DNA of 63,641 nt, taken from an uncultured Bacillota bacterium. Its GTDB lineage: Bacteria > Bacillota_I > Bacilli_A > RF39 > UBA660. Each line of letters starts with the position of its first letter. The first letter of the stretch is position 1. Under the pieces are notes generated by a model. That model made no database searches. It was not told the DNA's origin and saw only the letters and a list, made by a program, of their open reading frames with translations. The translations under genes and the position numbers were made by a program. The stretch covers positions 1 to 63,641 of the forward strand of contig CANSWR010000002.1 in the NCBI GenBank assembly GCA_947650795.1, written 5' to 3'. Below are positions 1-9,286 of this stretch, in pieces.

Positions 1-623
1 ATATAAAAATCTTTATTTCTATCTTCAATAAAGAAAGGCATTATATCATTATATAGGCATTCTCTAAACATTATCATTCTTCCAACACGACCATTTCCAT
101 CTTGAAAAGGATGAATTTTCTCAAATCTAACATGAAATTCTATTATATCCTCAACTCTTTTTTTATCTATTTTATCATACCACTCTAATAAATTTTTCAT
201 ATCACTTGCTACATTACTTGGAAGAGATGTTGTAATATTACCAACAAAGTTTTTTTTCTTTTTATATTCTCCTACATTAAACCATTCTTTTTCACTATCT
301 GTTAAAGTTCCATCTTTTAAAATAAAGTGGAATTTTTTTATCATGTCTTCAGATAATTTATCATCAATAGTATCTAACATATATTTAAATAAAGTAAAAT
401 GATTTTTTGTTTCAGTAGCATCTTTTAAAACAATAACTTTATCCCCACTTGTTAAAATTGTTCCTGTATCATAGATACTTGCAGTTTCGTCAGGTGTTAT
501 TGTAGAACCTTCAATATGATTAGAATTATATGCAAAATCTAGTTGAGTTTTATGATATAAACTACCGGATAAACCAATATTTTTTTGCTCAATTAATACT
601 TTTTTTATTTTATTTATTTCCAT
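1..623 (-). CDS. Fic/DOC family protein (about 207 N-terminal codons; C-terminus runs off the left edge)
   Basis: Own translation from the ATG at 623-621, with an AGGAGG RBS at about 631-637: MEINKIKKVLIEQ... It carries the canonical Fic motif HPFQDGNGRVGR close to the window edge. An N-terminal SNHIEG matches the inhibitory [ST]xxxE[GN] motif. Confidence 0.85.
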   Translation of the reverse strand, partial: MEINKIKKVLIEQKNIGLSGSLYHKTQLDFAYNSNHIEGSTITPDETASIYDTGTILTSGDKVIVLKDATETKNHFTLFKYMLDTIDDKLSEDMIKKFHFILKDGTLTDSEKEWFNVGEYKKKKNFVGNITTSLPSNVASDMKNLLEWYDKIDKKRVEDIIEFHVRFEKIHPFQDGNGRVGRMIMFRECLYNDIMPFFIEDRNKDFY

Positions 624-810
624 TTTTACTACCTCCTTTTAAAATTAATTCTACTTCTTCCATCGTTCTATCAACAATTGCTAGTGATAAGTTCCATATA
701 AATGACATACTAAATAATCCTAAAATTGTTCCAAATTGATAAATAAAATCCTTAATCCATATATCAGCAATTACACAAATACATATAACTAAATAATAAG
801 ATACAACCAT
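610..810 (-). CDS. small hydrophobic (about 2 TM) protein, overlaps the Fic start
   Basis: ORF track, 66 aa. Two hydrophobic stretches. Its end overlaps the Fic start codon, which suggests translational coupling. No recognisable family. Confidence 0.4.
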   Translation of the reverse strand: MVVSYYLVICICVIADIWIKDFIYQFGTILGLFSMSFIWNLSLAIVDRTMEEVELILKGGSKNGNK

Positions 811-858
811 AAAGAATATAAATTCTGATGATTTTCTAGTTAAATTTTATCATCACTT

Positions 859-1053
859 TTATCTATTTTCTGCTTTTCCCTCTTTAGACCACTTTGTGAT
901 AAACATTAAATTACCCAACATGTTTAATACTAAAGATACCCAAAAGAAATTTGTACTATTATTTATATCAAAACAAACTAAAATAAATGAAACAACTAAT
1001 AATACTAAACTAACAACTTGAATCTTGTTTAACCTTCTTAAACTATTTACCAT
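859..1053 (-). CDS. small membrane protein
   Basis: ORF track 859..1074. I prefer the ATG at 1053-1051, which overlaps the XRE stop (AATGGTAAATAG). The protein MVNSLRRLNKIQVVSLVLLVVSFILV... has two hydrophobic segments. Confidence 0.45.
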   Translation of the reverse strand: MVNSLRRLNKIQVVSLVLLVVSFILVCFDINNSTNFFWVSLVLNMLGNLMFITKWSKEGKAENR

Positions 1054-1534
1054 TTCTAAACTCCTCAATAGCATTACTATTTAATAATTTCATAATTTCT
1101 TCGTTTGTTTCATTTTGGTATTCAAGATCCTCTATTGTTTCTAATAATACATTTTTCTTTTCTTCATCTGCATCAAGAGATGCTTTTTTTAATGATTCAA
1201 TAACTACTTTATTATTTATAGTAGAACTTTCTATACTATCCATTGCTTCTTTTAGTTCTTTTCCTCTTAATTTAGAGTAGTGTTCAAGTAAATATGGATT
1301 AAGTGGACTAACCTGTGCTCCTAAACCAGAAGCATACATTAAATCATTATAATTAACACCAATATACTTACTTATCTTTCTAAGTAGTTTAGGATTAGGT
1401 ACTTCACGTTCTCCTGATTCTATTCTTGATATATCAGAAGAACTTATATTTGCAAGTGCTGCCAGTTGACGCATTGACAAATTATTTTCTTCTCTACCTT
1501 GTTGAATTAATTCTCCAACTTTAGTTTTAGCCAT
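1043..1534 (-). CDS. XRE-family helix-turn-helix transcriptional regulator with a C-terminal helical domain
   Basis: The N-terminus is a typical Cro/C1 HTH: GELIQQGREENNLSMRQLAALANISSSDISRIESGEREVP. It has its own promoter and RBS. Confidence 0.85.
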   Translation of the reverse strand: MAKTKVGELIQQGREENNLSMRQLAALANISSSDISRIESGEREVPNPKLLRKISKYIGVNYNDLMYASGLGAQVSPLNPYLLEHYSKLRGKELKEAMDSIESSTINNKVVIESLKKASLDADEEKKNVLLETIEDLEYQNETNEEIMKLLNSNAIEEFRNGK

Positions 1535-1557
1535 GCTTTCAAGTCCTTTCTGAATTG

Positions 1558-1657
1558 ATTATAACATATACATTGCTTTTTTGCAACATTTTTAATTTAT
1601 TTTTGCAAAAAAGGTTGATATCTGAATTTATGATGCTATAACTATGTTAAATTGCAA
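1558..1657 (-). promoter_or_regulatory. sigmaA-type promoter of the XRE operon plus three TTGCAA palindromes (candidate operators)
   Basis: On the minus strand: TTGCAA (1586-1581), a 17-nt spacer, then TATAAT (1563-1558), about 24 nt before the ATG. Further TTGCAA palindromes lie at 1603-1608 (within TTTTGCAAAA) and at 1652-1657. Confidence 0.55.
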
Positions 1658-1721
1658 CAGAAAAAACAATTTGAAGCAAAAATGAAATAAGGTAAACAAA
1701 TGAAAACTTAAAAAGTTTAAA

Positions 1722-1752
1722 TAAAATTCCACTAGCGTAACTAGTGGTTTTA
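1722..1752 (-). terminator. rho-independent terminator after the RT gene (hairpin usable on both strands)
   Basis: CCACTAG (1729-1735) / CTAGTGG (1741-1747), a 7-bp stem with a 5-nt loop, flanked by T/A runs on both sides. Confidence 0.6.
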
Positions 1753-1852
1753 CATTTTCGCCTATAAGGCTATATTACTGGCATACACTAAAGTACCCTG
1801 TCGACTGCCAAAAGCATTCTTTACTTGCTACTCTTTAAATGGGTCAAAATCT

Positions 1853-2896
1853 TCAAATGTCATTTGTTGACTTAATTGATCTTCTTTTAGTTGATTTGCT
1901 ATATATTCTTTTATTTTCTTCGTATTCTTTCCTACTGTGTCTACATAGTATCCTGTTCTTTAATTCTCTAACACACTTTAAATAATTCCTAAACTCTAAA
2001 GAATTATTTATATTATTTACAAACATAATTTTTCCATATAAACTATTTATATAATCTTCTTTTCTTTCCGTATAACCAATTCTGATAAGATGGCCATCAA
2101 TTCCAAACTTCTTAATATAATAAATTTCTTGTCTAATCTTATCTTTATACTTTCTTGAAACTTGAACTTTTTCATTAACAACAAGTCCTGTCACACTTTG
2201 CTTTTTTGACTTACATACTACATTTATCTTACGCTTATTAAGAGAAAAACCTAAAAGATTTAACTGACTATTAACAAATCTTATAACCTCTCCCACATTA
2301 AAACTTCCAGAAAAAGTCATATCATCTGAATATCTAGTATATGCTATACTTCTTTCTTCACAAAATCTTCCAACAGTTTGATCAAAATCTCTCATAATTA
2401 AATTAGAAATATAAGAACTAGTAGGCGCGCCTTGAGGAATATAACCATAGTAAGTACAAAGAGTTGTTAATAAAACTCCTATATTCTTAGGATAATACTC
2501 TATTGAAAAACAATATTTGTACACTTGATTAAAATTTATACTATCAAAAAAATTTTTAATATCTAACTTTAAAATAATCTCTTTATTAACATGTGGCAAA
2601 GCATTTTCTTTCAAACTAATACCACTTACATATGCCTTAGCATACTTACTTACATTTCTCTCACTAAGAACATTCTTAAGTATTTGCCTTTGAATATATT
2701 TAAGAGTTTCACTAGGCTCATAAATAGTCCTATATCCACCACTCCTCTTTCTAACTTTAAAAACTTTATAATTATTTTCTACATTATTACTTATTGAATA
2801 AAGTTCTTTTATATATTCATTATCACTCTTATTATCAATTAAAAAAAGAGATAATAAGAAATCATTACATTGTTTTTTAGTAACATATTTCCACAT
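1853..2896 (-). CDS. retron-type reverse transcriptase
   Basis: ORF track 1853..2914. I prefer the ATG at 2896 (MWKYVTKK), preceded by GGAGGG. Motifs seen: YRTIYEPSETLKYIQRQIL; the retron-typical NAxxH (ENALPH); LDIKNFFDSI; QGAPTSSYISN; YTRYSDDMTFS; and the retron-specific VTG (SVTGLVVNEK). Confidence 0.85.
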   Translation of the reverse strand: MWKYVTKKQCNDFLLSLFLIDNKSDNEYIKELYSISNNVENNYKVFKVRKRSGGYRTIYEPSETLKYIQRQILKNVLSERNVSKYAKAYVSGISLKENALPHVNKEIILKLDIKNFFDSINFNQVYKYCFSIEYYPKNIGVLLTTLCTYYGYIPQGAPTSSYISNLIMRDFDQTVGRFCEERSIAYTRYSDDMTFSGSFNVGEVIRFVNSQLNLLGFSLNKRKINVVCKSKKQSVTGLVVNEKVQVSRKYKDKIRQEIYYIKKFGIDGHLIRIGYTERKEDYINSLYGKIMFVNNINNSLEFRNYLKCVRELKNRILCRHSRKEYEENKRIYSKSTKRRSIKSTNDI

Positions 2897-2907
2897 ATTA
2901 TCCCTCC

Positions 2908-3076
2908 AAAGCAATACACAAAATATTATAATGTGAAAATGTACGGTTGTGCGTATAGCACATTGCTACATGTAGTGTAGAAAAGTACATTGTAAAATTA
3001 TAATTAATATCATATCTAATACTAGTCCTTTAGTGACTCACTAAAGTAGAGTAAAAAACTCATACACTATTGCTCA
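2908..3076 (-). ncRNA. candidate retron msr/msd non-coding RNA (boundaries approximate)
   Basis: This is the 211-nt gap between the 164-aa ORF and the RT. On the minus strand, GAGCAATA (about 3075-3068) can pair with TATTGCTT (about 2916-2909) next to the RT RBS, as a1/a2 repeats do, and a G follows a1. Internal hairpins are CTTTAGTGA/TCACTAAAG (3028-3046) and TGTGC/GCACA (2948-2962). Assignment is by position and dyads only. Confidence 0.35.
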
Positions 3077-3107
3077 CATAAATAATATCATAATTTAATA
3101 CTTTAAT

Positions 3108-3602
3108 CTATAATTTATCACTTATTCCAAATAATTTCTTTTGTTTAGAAATACTTTTATTTAATCTATTTATAGATTTTCTATAATCCCTAGTATATTC
3201 TGAATTTTGAATTAACGTAACAAAATGATCCATTATCTGTGATAACTCTTTATTATTAGTTTCACTAGATAATAAAGCAAGTTCTTCTTTAGAAAAACAA
3301 AACTCTAAATTATCTGTCTGCAAATTATAACTAATTCTCTTACCTAAAATATATAAAGTCTTTTCTAAAGAAACAACAAAATCTTCTTCCCATTTAAAAT
3401 GGTCCGTAAAATATTGCTCCATATCTATAAAAACACTAAATTCCTCTCTCCAATTTTCATTTTCATTTAAAATACTCTCTATAATATCCTTATAATTACT
3501 AGGTAAACTAACCCAAATATTTTCTCTCTGAACTAAATCTATAACCTTAGAATTTCTAGCAAATCCAGTTAAAAAATATAAAGTAAAATTATCTATACTC
3601 AT
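3108..3602 (-). CDS. hypothetical protein immediately upstream of the retron ncRNA/RT
   Basis: ORF track, 164 aa. No motif recognised. Same strand as the RT, and its stop lies about 30 nt before the candidate ncRNA. Confidence 0.6.
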   Translation of the reverse strand: MSIDNFTLYFLTGFARNSKVIDLVQRENIWVSLPSNYKDIIESILNENENWREEFSVFIDMEQYFTDHFKWEEDFVVSLEKTLYILGKRISYNLQTDNLEFCFSKEELALLSSETNNKELSQIMDHFVTLIQNSEYTRDYRKSINRLNKSISKQKKLFGISDKL

Positions 3603-3657
3603 AAAACATCTCTCCTAAAATAATAATAACATTAAAAACAAAAAAAGTATAGAATTT

Positions 3658-4128
3658 CTATGCCTTTTTAGATTTTTTACGATTTTTATTAACATTATTA
3701 TTTTTAACTAATTTAACTTCTTTCTTTTCGCTCTCTTCTAATCTGTTAACAACCTCTTTTGCTGCTTTTAAAGTAGCACTTTTAACTTCTCCTACTGCTT
3801 TTTCAACAACTGGAGTACCTTTCTCTTTAGCATATAAAGCTAATTCTTCTGCCTTTTTTCCAACTTTTTTAGCTTGATTTTTAGCTATCTTTAAAGCTTT
3901 TTCTTTATCTAAATCAGACAGCTCCATTCTAAGCTCTTCAACTTTCTGTAAAATATCTGCTTTAACATCTTCTGGATCAATTTCTTTAATTTTTTCTACT
4001 AATTCATCTAACTTTTTCTTTAAATCCCTTCTAGTTTTAGCTCCATCTTGAGGTGCAAATAAAAGTGCAACTCCTGCTCCAACACCAACGCCTAATATAA
4101 ACTTACCAAATCCACACTTTCTACTCAT
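3658..4128 (-). CDS. YtxH-domain protein
   Basis: GKFILGVGVGAGVALLFAPQDGAKTRRDL is the YtxH signature. Start chosen at MSRKCGFGKF, preceded by AAGGAG. Confidence 0.75.
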   Translation of the reverse strand: MSRKCGFGKFILGVGVGAGVALLFAPQDGAKTRRDLKKKLDELVEKIKEIDPEDVKADILQKVEELRMELSDLDKEKALKIAKNQAKKVGKKAEELALYAKEKGTPVVEKAVGEVKSATLKAAKEVVNRLEESEKKEVKLVKNNNVNKNRKKSKKA

Positions 4129-4420
4129 AAATATTCTCCTTTTCTCTAAATTTCCTATTCTTTCTCTTCTTAGCAAAAACCTTACCAATAAATCCACTTA
4201 TATATCCAGTAATAGTATTCCCTATCATACCAAATCTATTTGTAGTATTCTCTATAAGCTCAAAAACAGCATCTAAACTCTCAGCTTTTCTAGTAATATT
4301 TTCTACTAAATAATCCACTCTTGATAAAGTCCCTATTAATTTTATGCATAAAACTATAAGTGTTATGATAAATATTATTAAACATATATATATTAGTATT
4401 ACCAAAGCATCTACTAGCAT
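4121..4420 (-). CDS. DUF948-like (YtxG-like) membrane protein
   Basis: An N-terminal TM helix followed by a helical domain. It sits directly upstream of the YtxH gene, as in ytxG-ytxH pairs. Confidence 0.6.
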   Translation of the reverse strand: MLVDALVILIYICLIIFIITLIVLCIKLIGTLSRVDYLVENITRKAESLDAVFELIENTTNRFGMIGNTITGYISGFIGKVFAKKRKNRKFREKENIYE

Positions 4421-4423
4421 AAA

Positions 4424-5461
4424 CTATTCTCCTTCCTTTTCTTCATACATAGAATCTATTAAATTAAATAAATCATGCTCCAAAGTCTTTTCAAATCCTT
4501 CTTCTTTAGGTTCTTCCTTTATTTCCTCTTTACTTTCAAATCTAGTTTTAAAATCATCTAACAAAGAACTTTGTTCCTCACTCTTATCTTCTTCTTGTTT
4601 TATACTCTCATGTCCTTCTACTTTAAAATTAAATCCAAACTCTCCAGTATCATCTTCCTCAAGTTTATCCTTATATTGCTCTTCAACTTCACCTATAGAC
4701 ATATTTCTATTTCCTTCAATTTCACTTAACAAATCTTCAATAGATTTTGTATCTTCTAAAGGTGCACTTGTACTTTTTTCTTCTTTAGGTTTCTCACTTA
4801 TCTTAGACAAAGTATTTTCAAGCTCATCTTCAAGTGTTCCATATGCTTTTCTTCTAACAGAATCATAATTCATATCACTAGGATTATGTCTAACAAATTC
4901 ATTTCTTTGTCTTATTTCTTCTTTAGTATAGTTTTTATCTAAAACTCCATATACAGGACTAATAACAGGACTTGGTTTAAAAGTTCTCTCAGAATTTTTA
5001 TTAGATTGAACCCCGTAACTTCTTGAACTACTATTACTATTATTAATCTTATTAGGCATTTTATACTCAGATGTTCTGTCTGTATCTCTTTTTTGAGGTC
5101 TCATATCATAATCTAAAATAGCACTTCTGGTTCTAGGTTTATTTTCCTCACGTCTAATAACTGGTTCTTCATCTTCCTCATCTATTACAGGAAACTTAAA
5201 AGATGGCTGAGTCTTAAAAAGATCTCTTTCAGTATATATAGGTGCGACTGACTTAGGTCTCTCAGGCTCTCTTTTTTCTCTTTGAACTATAGGTTCTTCC
5301 ATTTTAAAAGAAGGCATTTCTTTTCTTATAACTTGTTCTTCTCTCTTAGGAATTCTAACTTCTTCTATTCTAGGTTGCACCTCTTGTCTTTTCTCTTCTA
5401 CTGGGACCTCAACTATTTCTTCATCATAGAAAATATTCTTTATCTTACCAAACAATCCCAT
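4424..5461 (-). CDS. hypothetical E/K-rich low-complexity protein
   Basis: ORF track, 345 aa. Amphipathic N-terminus MGLFGKIKNIF. No domain recognised. Confidence 0.6.
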   Translation of the reverse strand: MGLFGKIKNIFYDEEIVEVPVEEKRQEVQPRIEEVRIPKREEQVIRKEMPSFKMEEPIVQREKREPERPKSVAPIYTERDLFKTQPSFKFPVIDEEDEEPVIRREENKPRTRSAILDYDMRPQKRDTDRTSEYKMPNKINNSNSSSRSYGVQSNKNSERTFKPSPVISPVYGVLDKNYTKEEIRQRNEFVRHNPSDMNYDSVRRKAYGTLEDELENTLSKISEKPKEEKSTSAPLEDTKSIEDLLSEIEGNRNMSIGEVEEQYKDKLEEDDTGEFGFNFKVEGHESIKQEEDKSEEQSSLLDDFKTRFESKEEIKEEPKEEGFEKTLEHDLFNLIDSMYEEKEGE

Positions 5462-5482
5462 AACACACCTCTTTCTTAAATC

Positions 5483-6109
5483 CTATTCTGTATACTGATC
5501 ATATTCAGCTACGTCTAATATATTTCTATCATTTTCAACTTCAGGTTTAGCTATCTCGTAAGTAGACTCACTAGACACCAAATCTCTACTAGCAATCAAT
5601 TTTTCTATAACTTTATCATTATATTTAACAGAAGAAAGTATAATAGCAGAATCTATAACTGCCTTTTTAATATCTTTTTCTTTAACCCCTACCTCTATAT
5701 AACTATAATTATACAACATTTTTATATAAAAGTAACCATTTTTTGCATCCTTTATAGAAATATAACCATCTATATTATTATAACTAAACTTATAACTATA
5801 ATAAAGTTCATTATCCACAACATAATCTACTTTATAATTATTATTCTTAGAATTGTAATAAGCATTTAAGTCAACATTAAAATAAAAATTATATCCATTA
5901 TTTAAAAGAATTAAATTAAACTCTTTTTCCTCTAACACAGAAAAATCCCTAGGCTTATAATATCTATAACCTTTACCATTAGTATTTGCATATTTCATGT
6001 TAGATTCTAAAACACTACCAATTGCCCTCTCCATAGTAAGCATATTAGATGAATAAGTTGTACATCCTGTTAAAAGTATAACTGATAAAATAATAATAAC
6101 TTTCTTCAT
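5483..6109 (-). CDS. lipoprotein
   Basis: Signal peptide with a lipobox: MKKVIIILSVILLTGC. Confidence 0.75.
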   Translation of the reverse strand: MKKVIIILSVILLTGCTTYSSNMLTMERAIGSVLESNMKYANTNGKGYRYYKPRDFSVLEEKEFNLILLNNGYNFYFNVDLNAYYNSKNNNYKVDYVVDNELYYSYKFSYNNIDGYISIKDAKNGYFYIKMLYNYSYIEVGVKEKDIKKAVIDSAIILSSVKYNDKVIEKLIASRDLVSSESTYEIAKPEVENDRNILDVAEYDQYTE

Positions 6110-6198
6110 TTCTCACCTACTCCTACTAAATATTATAGCAAACATTTTTCTAAATTAATAGTGTCTTTTTATAGTAAAATATTTTACGCACATTGACA

Positions 6199-6816
6199 TC
6201 AAAACTTAAACACCTTTACATAATTTATATTCTTTCCTTTACTAATAAACTTGTCTTCATATTCTGTCCTAATACTATCAAAATAATTAATACTTTTCTT
6301 TAAAACATGATATCCTTTATTTTTAAAACTCTCTAAACTGTAAAAGAAAAAATCATCATTATCTGTCTTTTGTTCAATAATTTTAAATCTTTTAAAAATT
6401 TTTTCATATTTATCTAAAAATTGAGGACTAGTAAGTCGTCTTTTAGAATGTCTTTTTTTTGGCCATGGATCACTAAAATTAAGATACATTTTACTTATCT
6501 CTTTATAAAATATCTTATCTATATTTATAGCATCTGCACATACTATTCTCAAATTAGAAATATTTTCTTTTTCTATTAACTCTATAGCACTTAAAAGTAC
6601 ACTAGGATATTTTTCAAAACCTATAAAATTAATATCAGGATTTTCCTGTGCCTTTTTTATTATAAATTGACCCTTTCCCATTCCTACTTCCAAATGTATT
6701 TTATTATTATTTTTAAAGACACTTTTCCATTTTCCCTTATAATTTTCAGGTTCATGAATAACTACATTACTATTATTTACAATAGTTTCACTTCCCTTAA
6801 TATGTTTAAGTCTCAT
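6199..6816 (-). CDS. trmB: tRNA (guanine-N7)-methyltransferase
   Basis: HLEVGMGKGQFI SAM-binding motif and LNFSDPWPKKRHSKRRL, both typical of TrmB. Confidence 0.9.
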   Translation of the reverse strand: MRLKHIKGSETIVNNSNVVIHEPENYKGKWKSVFKNNNKIHLEVGMGKGQFIIKKAQENPDINFIGFEKYPSVLLSAIELIEKENISNLRIVCADAINIDKIFYKEISKMYLNFSDPWPKKRHSKRRLTSPQFLDKYEKIFKRFKIIEQKTDNDDFFFYSLESFKNKGYHVLKKSINYFDSIRTEYEDKFISKGKNINYVKVFKF

Positions 6817-6931
6817 ACTTTTCCACCTCTAACTGTTATATTGTACAATAATTTAATAGTATTTTCTAGTTTTCTTTACACAGATTAGGATATTATCACA
6901 TATAATAAAATGAGTAGGAGGGTTTAAAACT

Positions 6932-7276
6932 ATGAATAGAGATATGATTTATGGAAACTATCAAGCTGGCGGTTTTGCAGAACCAAACTTCATGGGACCT
7001 AATCCAAATATGGGAATGCCTATGCAACAACCACAAGGATATAATATTAATGCTAATTATCAAGCATATGGACCAAATGTAATCCCTGGAGCGATGAACA
7101 ACAATATGAACACACAAAATAGTTATAACACTTATAACGACGATTATGAAAATAGAATAACAAAATTAGAAAGACAAGTAAGAAGAATTGACCAAAGACT
7201 AAGAAAACTTGAAAACTCTAACATTACTACACTAGAAGAAGATATAAACGATTTTACTAATATTCATATGATTTAA
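6932..7276 (+). CDS. hypothetical protein: Q/N/P/M-rich N-terminus, coiled-coil C-terminus
   Basis: AGGAGG RBS about 9 nt upstream of the ATG. 114 aa. Confidence 0.55.
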   Translation: MNRDMIYGNYQAGGFAEPNFMGPNPNMGMPMQQPQGYNINANYQAYGPNVIPGAMNNNMNTQNSYNTYNDDYENRITKLERQVRRIDQRLRKLENSNITTLEEDINDFTNIHMI

Positions 7277-7321
7277 GAATAAAAGATATCAATAACTTAA
7301 CTTTGATATCTTTTATATTTA

Positions 7322-9286
7322 TTAAGATTTTTTACGAAACTTTAAAAATAAATTATTAATTTTATTTCTATTAATGATAACTAAAATAATAAATAAAATT
7401 ATTAACAAAACACAACTAGGAATTATAATATATAAAGATTTAAAACTTTTATTATTTTTAACATCAATTTTATTAATCTCATCGACTTCAATATTTTCTT
7501 CTTTATCATCTAAAATTACAGAAGTATCTATCAAAGCCTCATTTCCTAATTCTAAAATACTGTCTTTAACAACATTACTCTTTGAAGCAGCTTTTTTAGA
7601 AATTATATACTTACTATTATGAGTAATATAGAATTTATAATAACCATCTTCTGACAAACTAATTTGCTTAGCAATAGACTCAAGACCATCTGAAGAATCC
7701 TCAATATGATATACATATAAGCCACTATCCCCTATATAATCTCTTAATGAATAATCAGCTTTAATTTTTATTAGTGATTTACCAGGAAGTAATCCATTAC
7801 TTGCAAATTCTATAACAATCGCATCTGTTCCTTCACTGAACATTCCTTCATATTCTCCATTGTTACATTCAAAAATCTTATATATATTTATTTTAGTATT
7901 AATATCTTTCACATCATTTATAATATTTAACCCATTAAATATCCATTGTATACCATCATTGATAACTATCATATTAACATCTTTTCCTTTAATAGCGCTA
8001 AAAGCGTCTGCTTTTAAAATACTATCACTAGTTGTATCAATAGTTATAGATTTTCCATTCTCTAAAGATTCTATTTTTTCAACATAATCGTTATTTACTG
8101 TACTAGTTGTAATATCACTTACAACTGATTGTACAAGTGTCATAGTTACTTTTTCCATATTAGGATTTCCATCATCATATATACTATAAGTAATAGTTTT
8201 TCCAGATGTATCAGTAATTTCTACTCTATCAATATAAAATATCGAATTTGGAATATATTGACCAAAAGTATAAGTTGCAACAGCTTGTTTTTTAGAATTA
8301 TCATATCTAGTTAATAAAACTAGTGAGTCTATTCCTTCTCCATTCTGATCTTCTCCCTGAAAATATATTTTAACATCTCCTACACCAGTATCATCAGTTA
8401 TAGAACAATAAATTCTAGCAGTTCCAGGAGCAGAAACCTTATTAGAATCATAAAAACATTTATGAAGTACAGGATACTCTGTATCATTAATTTTATTAGA
8501 AAACACAACATCTAAATTTTGTGATAAAATTATCTCATTATAATCTCTAAAAGGATCACGACTTACATCAGTATCATATTTACTTTTATTTCCAGCAGAA
8601 TCATAAACATAAGCAGTCACAAATTTAGCATCAGAATACACTGCATTTTCATTAATACTTACAAAAGCAGAATAAGTATTACCAGAAACATGACTAAGAG
8701 TATAATCATAAAGCTTACCATTTATTTCATAATAAAATGTTACTTGAGTTATAGCAGACTTATCATCAGTAGCATCAACACTAATTGTAAAATTAGAAGG
8801 ATAAGTTGTCACTTGAGGAGTTATTCTAAAATTAGATAATACAGGTGCTACATTATCCTTTCCATTATCATTAACAGTTATATCTACCCTATCAAATGGA
8901 AAATCCTCTTCTCCAAGATAATAAGTCCTCAAATTATTAGCACCATCCCACACTTGCACTGCATATATTTCATATTCTCCAGGTTGAACATTTTCTGGAA
9001 CAATTTTTGTATACGAAAACGAATTAGAGGGTGTTACATTCCCAACAAGACCAAAATATTTAGAATTATCACTTTTAAGCCTAGCTTCCACATCTATAAC
9101 AGCTATACCAGTCAAATTATCATTTCCTTGAACATAAACAGTAACACTTTCTCCAGGATTAAGAACATAATTACTTAAATATACACTAGATAATGTAGGT
9201 GCTTCTTCATCCTCTAATGCACTAAAATGTAAAAAGAACACAAATATTGAAATAACAAACAACGCCAAAAATTTAATATTTTTCAT
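7322..9286 (-). CDS. large secreted protein with N-terminal signal peptide and C-terminal TM anchor
   Basis: Hydrophobic N-terminus MKNIKFLALFVISIFVFFL and C-terminal LYIIIPSCVLLIILFIILVII followed by basic residues. The middle is beta-rich. Confidence 0.7.
   Translation of the reverse strand: MKNIKFLALFVISIFVFFLHFSALEDEEAPTLSSVYLSNYVLNPGESVTVYVQGNDNLTGIAVIDVEARLKSDNSKYFGLVGNVTPSNSFSYTKIVPENVQPGEYEIYAVQVWDGANNLRTYYLGEEDFPFDRVDITVNDNGKDNVAPVLSNFRITPQVTTYPSNFTISVDATDDKSAITQVTFYYEINGKLYDYTLSHVSGNTYSAFVSINENAVYSDAKFVTAYVYDSAGNKSKYDTDVSRDPFRDYNEIILSQNLDVVFSNKINDTEYPVLHKCFYDSNKVSAPGTARIYCSITDDTGVGDVKIYFQGEDQNGEGIDSLVLLTRYDNSKKQAVATYTFGQYIPNSIFYIDRVEITDTSGKTITYSIYDDGNPNMEKVTMTLVQSVVSDITTSTVNNDYVEKIESLENGKSITIDTTSDSILKADAFSAIKGKDVNMIVINDGIQWIFNGLNIINDVKDINTKINIYKIFECNNGEYEGMFSEGTDAIVIEFASNGLLPGKSLIKIKADYSLRDYIGDSGLYVYHIEDSSDGLESIAKQISLSEDGYYKFYITHNSKYIISKKAASKSNVVKDSILELGNEALIDTSVILDDKEENIEVDEINKIDVKNNKSFKSLYIIIPSCVLLIILFIILVIINRNKINNLFLKFRKKS

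Follow-up and report, generated by a model that had tools for sequence, protein, structure and literature searches.

The closest described relatives of the retron discussed here are Retron-Eco5 (Ec107) and the Ec107-like retrons of clade 2. The accessible parts of two surveys assign no dedicated partner gene to them: the Ec107 branch of clade 2 is reported without a conserved associated gene (Mestre 2020, PMC7736814), and the SPIRE survey of 2026 contains 192 clade2_Ec107like candidates, 93% of them from Bacillota, with no consistent accessory module (PMC13712802). According to the same portions of these sources, clade 2 is the sister group of III-A1; the type III-A retrons, e.g., Retron-Eco11 (PMC12746101), combine a phosphoribosyltransferase (PRTase)-like effector with a winged-helix protein. 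Among the Fic proteins, PDC-S04 is an unvalidated defense candidate for which one native-host test, in the part of the report that is available, saw no evidence of defense, and which a second preprint merely lists. A Fic homolog is also encoded by the Streptococcus satellite phage Javan293 (MK448405.1), where a repressor gene is followed by two genes, the Fic gene and an integrase gene, divergently from an arm with a small open reading frame (ORF) and replication genes. Here we analyze positions 1–3602 of a 63,641-nucleotide stretch (hereafter, the window) of contig CANSWR010000002.1 from an uncultured Bacillota bacterium (assembly GCA_947650795.1; RF39, UBA660), in which an initial annotation recognized a possible composite defense island consisting of a 164-amino acid (aa) protein (p164), a retron, an XRE-family protein, two small transmembrane (TM) proteins and a Fic protein.

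It is quite probable that the variable site immediately downstream of ytxG, window 1–3602, has accumulated three unrelated accessory units head to tail, namely the XRE-TM-Fic cassette, the retron and p164. Judging from the sequences, the arrangement seems to be due to chance and the parts appear to be of known kinds, rather than components of a new Fic-linked retron system. The cassette and the retron are separated by a sharp boundary. From window position 1 to positions 1721–1729, the DNA of the cassette is 89.9–92.6% identical to three other loci (L113, L114, L115), and this homology breaks off at the distal base of the terminator hairpin of the retron (position 1729); in the other retron loci, homology with the window ends near 3100–3135, and only one locus (L003) extends to 3612. 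The cassette is present in three other genera, at 93–98% protein identity, with neither a reverse transcriptase (RT) gene nor p164 within 7–8 kb. Neither gene was detected in nine Fic loci extended to 14–17 kb, and the intact cassettes among them are free of the RT in 3/3 cases. The alternative that the initial annotation itself had allowed, an independent module that merely neighbors the retron, is what these comparisons favor: the Fic operon exists elsewhere without an RT, and the DNA homology ends at the retron terminator. For the protein searches, a sample of 401 genomes of the order (145 genera) was used; the RT was found in 53 of these (E <= 1e-60), and in 22 it co-occurs with Fic, that is, in the genome of the window (G000) and 21 others, in all 21 of which the two genes reside on different contigs (two search tables compared by hand).

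The site itself is variable. In a genome of the same genus (G056), the backbone is 72–80% identical to that of the window at the DNA level, and a different Fic gene, for a protein of 220 aa, follows ytxG directly, at the position of the window island (C36; L144:2383-3045; motifs HPFMDGNGRTARL and STKIEGN), whereas p164, RT, XRE and the TM gene are all missing after ytxG. Because this genome carries another Fic gene after ytxG and none of the genes of the window, the region appears to be a variable, gene-collecting site, and the description of a composite island at the edge of the backbone holds. A shared hotspot near trmB in another genome (G053) was considered and rejected: the genes between trmB and the cassette in that genome are unrelated to the backbone of the window.

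The window starts at the end of contig C2 of a 1.52-Mb draft genome in 87 contigs. The ORF listing confirms six co-oriented genes, all on the minus strand at 3..3602, adjoining backbone genes that are ytxG-like, DUF-like and trmB; GC content is 22–28% across the region, with no compositional step. The features of the island are as follows (the promoters and terminators are consensus matches only).

3108..3602, minus strand: p164, ORF of 164 aa with no family match in Pfam, PADLOC or PHROG
3082..3090, minus strand: extended -10 element of the putative retron promoter, TGATATTAT, just 3' of the p164 stop codon, read from the sequence
2910..3075, minus strand: retron non-coding RNA (ncRNA), msr-msd, 165 nt, from alignment and covariation
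1853..2896, minus strand: retron RT, 347 aa, Ec107-like clade, from PADLOC, RVT_1 and motifs
1729..1747, minus strand: intrinsic terminator hairpin closing the retron unit, from a terminator scan; also the junction with the Fic cassette
1558..1586, minus strand: promoter-like sequence ahead of XRE, TTGCAA-17-TATAAT plus an upstream TG
1043..1534, minus strand: XRE-family repressor, 163 aa, with an N-terminal helix-turn-helix (HTH) and a helical C-terminal part of ~90 aa
859..1053, minus strand: "TM1", the N-terminal half of a split four-TM (4TM) gene; likely start at ATG 1053 behind GAGGAG (listed ORF, 1074..859)
811..861, minus strand: break in the 4TM gene, which has lost 8 bp and 1 bp here compared with intact copies and shows four in-frame stops
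610..810, minus strand: "TM2", the C-terminal half of the split 4TM gene; its start is an internal Met of the intact protein, with no Shine-Dalgarno sequence
3..623, minus strand: Fic protein, PDC-S04 family, carrying an inhibitory motif in its N-terminal part; 3' end missing at the contig end

The retron is genuine by its sequence signatures, with a predicted promoter, ncRNA, RT and terminator. The RT matches RVT_1 in Pfam (1.8e-20) and contains the motifs NALPH (2605..2591), RYSDD (2335..2321) and VTG (2194..2186); an NAxxH motif, a YxDD box and a VTG motif mark retron RTs. Its best PADLOC model, over the full model length, is RT_Ec107-like (4e-121, 402 bits), followed by RT_III-A (4e-103, 343 bits), the model of the type III-A retrons, and RT_VI (1.8e-56). 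By these model scores rather than by a tree, the retron is assigned to the stand-alone Ec107-like lineage of clade 2, a kind already described, and the host fits as well: it belongs to the host-associated Bacillota that, in the available part of the SPIRE survey, dominate the lineage (PMC13712802). The RT gene, which is present as a single copy in the genome, likely starts with ATG 2896 behind GGAGGG and not with TTG 2914. The window RT differs from its homologs in carrying an extra C-terminal tail of ~30 aa, and its likeness to Ec107 of E. coli is through the PADLOC model only.

The ncRNA immediately precedes the RT and is framed by an a1/a2 stem, as in the clade-2 Ec107-like retrons. A scan of window 1–8000 against Rfam gave no match at E <= 1, and the ncRNA was accordingly established by alignment, for which 44 of 77 available sequences were used (76 distinct locus sequences and the window; 195 nt upstream of the RT). 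The aligned regions conserve the extended -10 element (kept in place as TGnTATAAT in homologous loci), the a1/a2 stem, two msr hairpins and a long msd stem. The RNAalifold consensus contains 28 pairs, 18 of these with compensatory changes, and UA, AU and GC replace one another at the a1/a2 pairs. In the window, the a1 and a2 arms correspond to 3074..3068 and 2916..2910, respectively, and the single-sequence fold of the ncRNA has z = -2.15. Production of multicopy single-stranded DNA (msDNA) is a prediction. The 120 nt between the RT stop codon and the terminator (1730–1852) look structured as well (GGCAG...TGCC and similar); this stretch is common neither to other retron loci nor to the Fic cassettes. 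Several RT homologs of the order are interrupted by multiple in-frame stops, 8 in G108 (C6:2422-3345) and 4 in G283 (C14:14021-15025), so that decay of such retrons seems to be common.

The gene neighborhoods of RT homologs were surveyed in 80 loci out of 250 confirmed (53–71% identity), all from metagenome-assembled genomes of small-genome gut Bacilli, with flanks of at least 710 bp upstream in 76/80 loci and at least 2 kb downstream in 60/80. When the proteins of the window were compared by local BLAST with all six-frame ORFs of these loci, the RT was recovered in 80/80, p164 in a single locus (L003), and Fic at 76% identity in two (L015, L017), on the opposite strand, with one further match at 29%. 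The XRE protein gave weak generic HTH matches in two loci (29–30% over <70 aa); TM1 and TM2, like the backbone genes of the window, had none (0/80). The co-occurrence of XRE, 2TM and Fic genes with the RT, for which the initial annotation had suggested such a survey, is not seen in these 80 loci, and a Fic-linked retron is not supported. Among 1654 neighboring ORFs that were clustered, the largest family other than the RT and antisense shadow ORFs was present in 7/80 loci. The 47 immediate co-oriented neighbors, as classified by Pfam, include FtsK, enolase, peptidase M3, P-type ATPase, NusB, FtsA and ABC transporters along with many unknowns. In about two dozen RT loci, a co-oriented gene ends 195–240 bp ahead of the RT start, which indicates that the bare cassette typically sits right after some gene. 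The window retron thus appears, like its relatives, to have no dedicated neighboring effector, and this pattern agrees with both surveys as far as their available text goes (PMC7736814, PMC13712802).

The island also differs from the retron types that do possess such effectors. Pfam and PADLOC searches (E <= 0.1) of the six window proteins found no PRTase-like protein, which sets the locus apart from type III-A. Type IV retrons employ a 2TM effector; here, a terminator, a promoter and XRE separate the TM genes from the RT, and these genes are halves of one 4TM gene and recur in none of the 80 RT loci. Type VI is characterized by an HTH partner, but the RT scores 1.8e-56 with the RT_VI model vs. 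4e-121 with the Ec107-like model, and XRE accompanies the 4TM gene also where no RT is present. In L003 (1831-3371), the closest relative of the retron, a 220-aa LPD3-domain protein (3.5e-8) is encoded 3 bp after the RT, and beyond it the last 31 RT codons are repeated, followed by a divergent 111-aa second copy of the N-terminal part of the LPD3-domain protein. By its looks this arrangement is a duplicated or variant cassette, and it could also represent a retron partner specific to that sub-branch.

The two ~65-aa 2TM proteins of the initial annotation are one broken 4TM gene. TM1 and TM2 share a reading frame and correspond to a single 158-aa ORF (151 aa from a better start) in G283, G347 and G189, and the DNA alignment with four loci (L113, L114, L115, L085) places an 8-bp and a 1-bp deletion in the window copy; the genome search found 2 TGA and 2 TAA codons within the window match. 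The gene is broken also in G029 and G053. The 4TM family comprises 61 clusters in a collection of 5.8 billion proteins, mostly of 151 aa, none with a Pfam domain or a name, and the TM ORFs of the window have no PADLOC match. A single in-frame TAA in distant homologs was examined as a recurrent split and rejected; these are the natural stops of shorter ORFs of 150–152 aa. The XRE protein matches HTH_19 (2.7e-12) and HTH_3 in Pfam and only generic HTH models in PADLOC (HTH_VI, 4.4e-11), and its ortholog in L113 matches transcriptional repressor/regulator families of PHROG. A promoter of its own downstream of the RT, as previously proposed, is in evidence as consensus matches at 1586..1558 (10/12 positions plus the TG), after the terminator hairpin at 1747..1729 and inside the block common to the cassettes of other genomes. 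The ORF overlaps between XRE and TM1 and between TM2 and Fic speak for the suggested translational coupling of the operon; within it, however, TM2 lacks a Shine-Dalgarno sequence of its own and the TM gene is broken.

The genomic contexts of the cassette point to small integrative elements. Among the 29 closest Fic loci, 4 carry XRE and the TM gene(s) at 82–98% identity (G283, G189, G347, G029), 2 contain traces of these, and the remaining 23 have unrelated upstream genes. The 4TM protein is encoded in 35/401 genomes; in 19 of 20 further loci, an XRE homolog (40–75% identity) lies directly upstream of it, with Fic downstream in only one. On the other side of XRE, 18 of these 19 loci have a divergent ORF of 66–95 aa, beside which are genes for a replication initiator (HTH_36) or for primase-helicase-like proteins (AAA_25/DnaB_C). 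Farther along the divergent arm, G347 encodes an AAA_25 protein, a Mob_Pre relaxase and a tyrosine integrase. Genes for a ResIII helicase and an integrase are near the cassette of G283, whereas the cassette of G029 is frameshifted and stands by itself, flanked by metK/recG and GNAT/ABC genes. The slot that follows XRE-4TM differs in content between loci, being occupied by Fic, AbiEi/AbiEii, further HTH proteins or a MazE-like protein. The AbiEi/AbiEii cargo is that of L168 (1026-3438), with matches at 3e-61 and 2e-93. These observations suggest that the order contains a family of small integrative elements in which the XRE-4TM pair with its variable cargo slot lies opposite a small-ORF/replication arm (L155–L174).

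XRE-4TM-Fic in the window would then be the repressor arm of such an element, in partial decay and deprived of the divergent arm, because the relatives of XRE-4TM adjoin replication, relaxase and integrase genes and because the layout of Javan293 is alike: its repressor, accessory genes, Fic homolog and integrase are likewise divergent from a small-ORF/replication arm. Unlike Javan293, the window retains the repressor arm only; the retron takes the place of the missing divergent small-ORF/replication arm, and on the downstream side the contig ends before any integrase. The identity between the two Fic proteins is only 26.5%. No tRNA or tmRNA that could serve as an integration target was found in window 1–8000.

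The Fic protein matches PF02661 (1.3e-17) and, in PADLOC, PDC-S04 (PDLC04836; 1e-88, covering 2–205 of 244) and SoFic (1e-24). Both sequence motifs that the initial annotation had noted are present: the active-site loop HPFQDGNGRVGR at aa 171–182 fits HxFx(D/E)GNGRxxR, and SNHIEG at aa 34–39, ahead of the Fic core of this same protein, fits [ST]xxxE[GN]. A [ST]xxxE[GN] motif at such a position defines the class with an intramolecular inhibitory helix. The gene is cut at residue 207 by the contig end, whereas full-length homologs have 246–251 aa, and when the missing 3' end was sought in the rest of the assembly, nothing but the overlap with the window was retrieved. A stretch of 73 nt on a different contig of this genome (G000:C5:32040-32112) is 74% identical to part of the Fic gene and may belong to a second Fic-family gene. 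The nearest solved chains are 4x2e and 4x2c (1e-27; 4x2e over residues 10–217), which, together with the rest of the 4x2c–4x2e series, we take to be the "class II" Fic protein of Clostridioides difficile. The window Fic shares the catalytic and the S-x-x-x-E-G motifs with PDC-S04/SoFic and with this self-inhibited Fic. It differs from PDC-S04/SoFic in being preceded by XRE and 4TM, 23 of the 29 close homologs being solitary, and in being truncated by the assembly, and its role in defense is that of a candidate. Fic matches are found in 125/401 genomes (60/145 genera), with identities of up to 98% across genera, which indicates horizontal spread. Homologs are encoded also in 39 phage records, the best, at 54% identity, in phage contigs from human feces.

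The p164 gene is a real gene that belongs to a small family. It has no usable match in the ESM Atlas, and its family comprises 2 clusters in the word-indexed collection; a profile search of 1.84 billion representatives retrieved 159 relatives, 65 of these at E <= 1e-30, and 15/401 sampled genomes contain matches at 26–37% identity. The distant relatives reside between rsmD/histidine-phosphatase and hrcA or after yceD-rpmF, and no RT was found within 1.5 kb of 12 of them. Pfam detected no fused domain in 11 family members, including longer ones. The AF2 model (pLDDT 87.7) retrieved nothing from PDB with Foldseek at E <= 0.001. A winged-helix fold (best VIA Z 5.4) and LAGLIDADG/WhiA and kleisin-like folds (Z about 4) were rejected, these scores being below the noise level of the tool, and no fold is assigned.

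Several observations weigh against the three-unit interpretation. The far side of the island is unseen, as the contig ends inside Fic and the missing end is absent from the rest of the assembly. Fic is somewhat more frequent in RT-positive than in RT-negative genomes, 22/53 vs. 103/348 (Fisher p = 0.11, with the relatives being non-independent). In two further species (L015, L017), the RT and a 76%-identical Fic are only 1.4–2 kb apart, on opposite strands; p164, ncRNA and RT are collinear in L003 at 75% DNA identity, and p164 is missing from the same-genus genome G056; and the retron may have a trans-acting effector, to which synteny is blind. The boldest reading of this kind would make the XRE-TM-TM-Fic operon the effector module of the retron, that is, a new Fic-linked type in which the msDNA-RT complex controls Fic toxicity. 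Adjacency and co-orientation in the window are consistent with it, as are the related Fic genes near the RT in L015 and L017, the match of XRE to HTH_VI, and the 2TM proteins and HTH partners among known retron effectors (Mestre 2020, PMC7736814, Table 1, in the part of the source available). Nevertheless, it is highly improbable: a terminator and a separate promoter lie between RT and XRE, the cassette homology ends exactly at that terminator, the HTH_VI match is that of a generic HTH, and the Fic genes of L015 and L017 are convergent and lack the XRE and TM genes; the intact cassettes free of the RT, the absence of TM1/TM2 from all 80 RT loci and the separate contigs of RT and Fic in all 21 other genomes point the same way.

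It is also unlikely, if less strikingly so, that p164 is a lineage-specific accessory or effector of this Ec107-like sub-branch, with p164-ncRNA-RT moving as one 1.9-kb unit; slightly more doubtful still is the notion that the three form a retron of a new sub-type in which p164, possibly winged-helix-like, is the partner that "orphan" Ec107-like retrons lack. The collinear L003 locus, the sole support for a link of p164 with the retron, has the same gene order and spacing (209–212 bp) and 75% DNA identity over 1951–3612, and the closest RT (71%) accompanies the closest p164 (52%). The best structural rows of p164, weak as they are, are winged-helix DNA-binding domains, and a winged helix is also found in the accessory proteins of type III retrons; yet Z 5.4 is below the stated noise level. 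L003 is a 3.6-kb contig, where shared ancestry of the whole site is inseparable from linkage, and it is only one of 80 RT loci; the ncRNA has its own promoter 3' of the p164 stop, in ~24 other loci it is unrelated housekeeping genes that show this spacing, and distant family members occur in housekeeping contexts without an RT. Were a three-part p164 retron real, it would be the first handle on the role of an abundant retron lineage of gut Bacillota. The most serious competitor, possible although not favored, is that XRE-4TM-Fic is a free-standing defense or toxin-antitoxin-like operon and functions here as an abortive infection system rather than being a decaying remnant. The strong match of Fic to PDC-S04 and the weaker one to SoFic, the catalytic and inhibitory motifs that are intact in the part present, the intact promoter, AbiEi/AbiEii in the same slot of L168 and the different Fic at this variable site in the sister genome all fit such an operon. 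Against it, 4TM is broken here as it is in G029 and G053, the 3' end of Fic is not assembled, and the intact versions are located inside elements with relaxase and integrase genes. The defense label of the initial annotation accordingly stands in so far as Fic matches a candidate defense family, PDC-S04, but that family is unvalidated and, in the accessible part of the report, showed no activity in one native-host test.

Under the preferred interpretation of three accumulated units, Unit A (3100–1729) would be a self-contained stand-alone retron of ~1.35 kb, with its own promoter, msr-msd ncRNA, RT and terminator; the RT would use the ncRNA as both primer and template to produce msDNA, and the retron would act, if at all, without an effector in cis. 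Unit B (1729–1) would represent the repressor arm of a satellite-like element of the integrative mobilizable kind. XRE, transcribed from its own putative promoter and probably coupled translationally to the 4TM protein (broken here) and Fic, would autoregulate the operon as the immunity repressor of an element would. Fic could be the cargo, an AMP-transferase kept inhibited by its N-terminal S-x-x-x-E-G helix; Fic toxins and their inhibitory glutamate are generally known. Once activated, it would modify a host target, causing growth arrest and, as a consequence, phage exclusion or retention of the element. For the 4TM protein, a role akin to superinfection exclusion or in signal sensing is a guess from its position. 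With no divergent arm, a split 4TM gene and an assembly that ends inside Fic, Unit B resembles a decaying remnant.

The locus is a cautionary example, in that adjacency and co-orientation hinted at a Fic-linked retron, whereas comparative synteny resolves known parts. It adds one more well-delimited (promoter to terminator, ~1.35 kb) stand-alone Ec107-like retron, of a kind that is common in gut Bacillota and is not known to have an effector or a function. The pair of XRE and an uncharacterized 4TM protein, for its part, seems to head the repressor arm of small integrative elements, the cargo slot of which (Fic, AbiE and others) is a possible source of defense genes. Unit C, p164, would be an accessory gene of a small, lineage-restricted family and probably nothing more than the gene that the retron cassette happens to follow. 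In other genera, members of the p164 family with 170–222 aa occupy fixed housekeeping positions (L124, L125, L127, L130; L123, L128, L129, L132), sometimes as tandem pairs (G112, G073), and the family may have a core cellular role.

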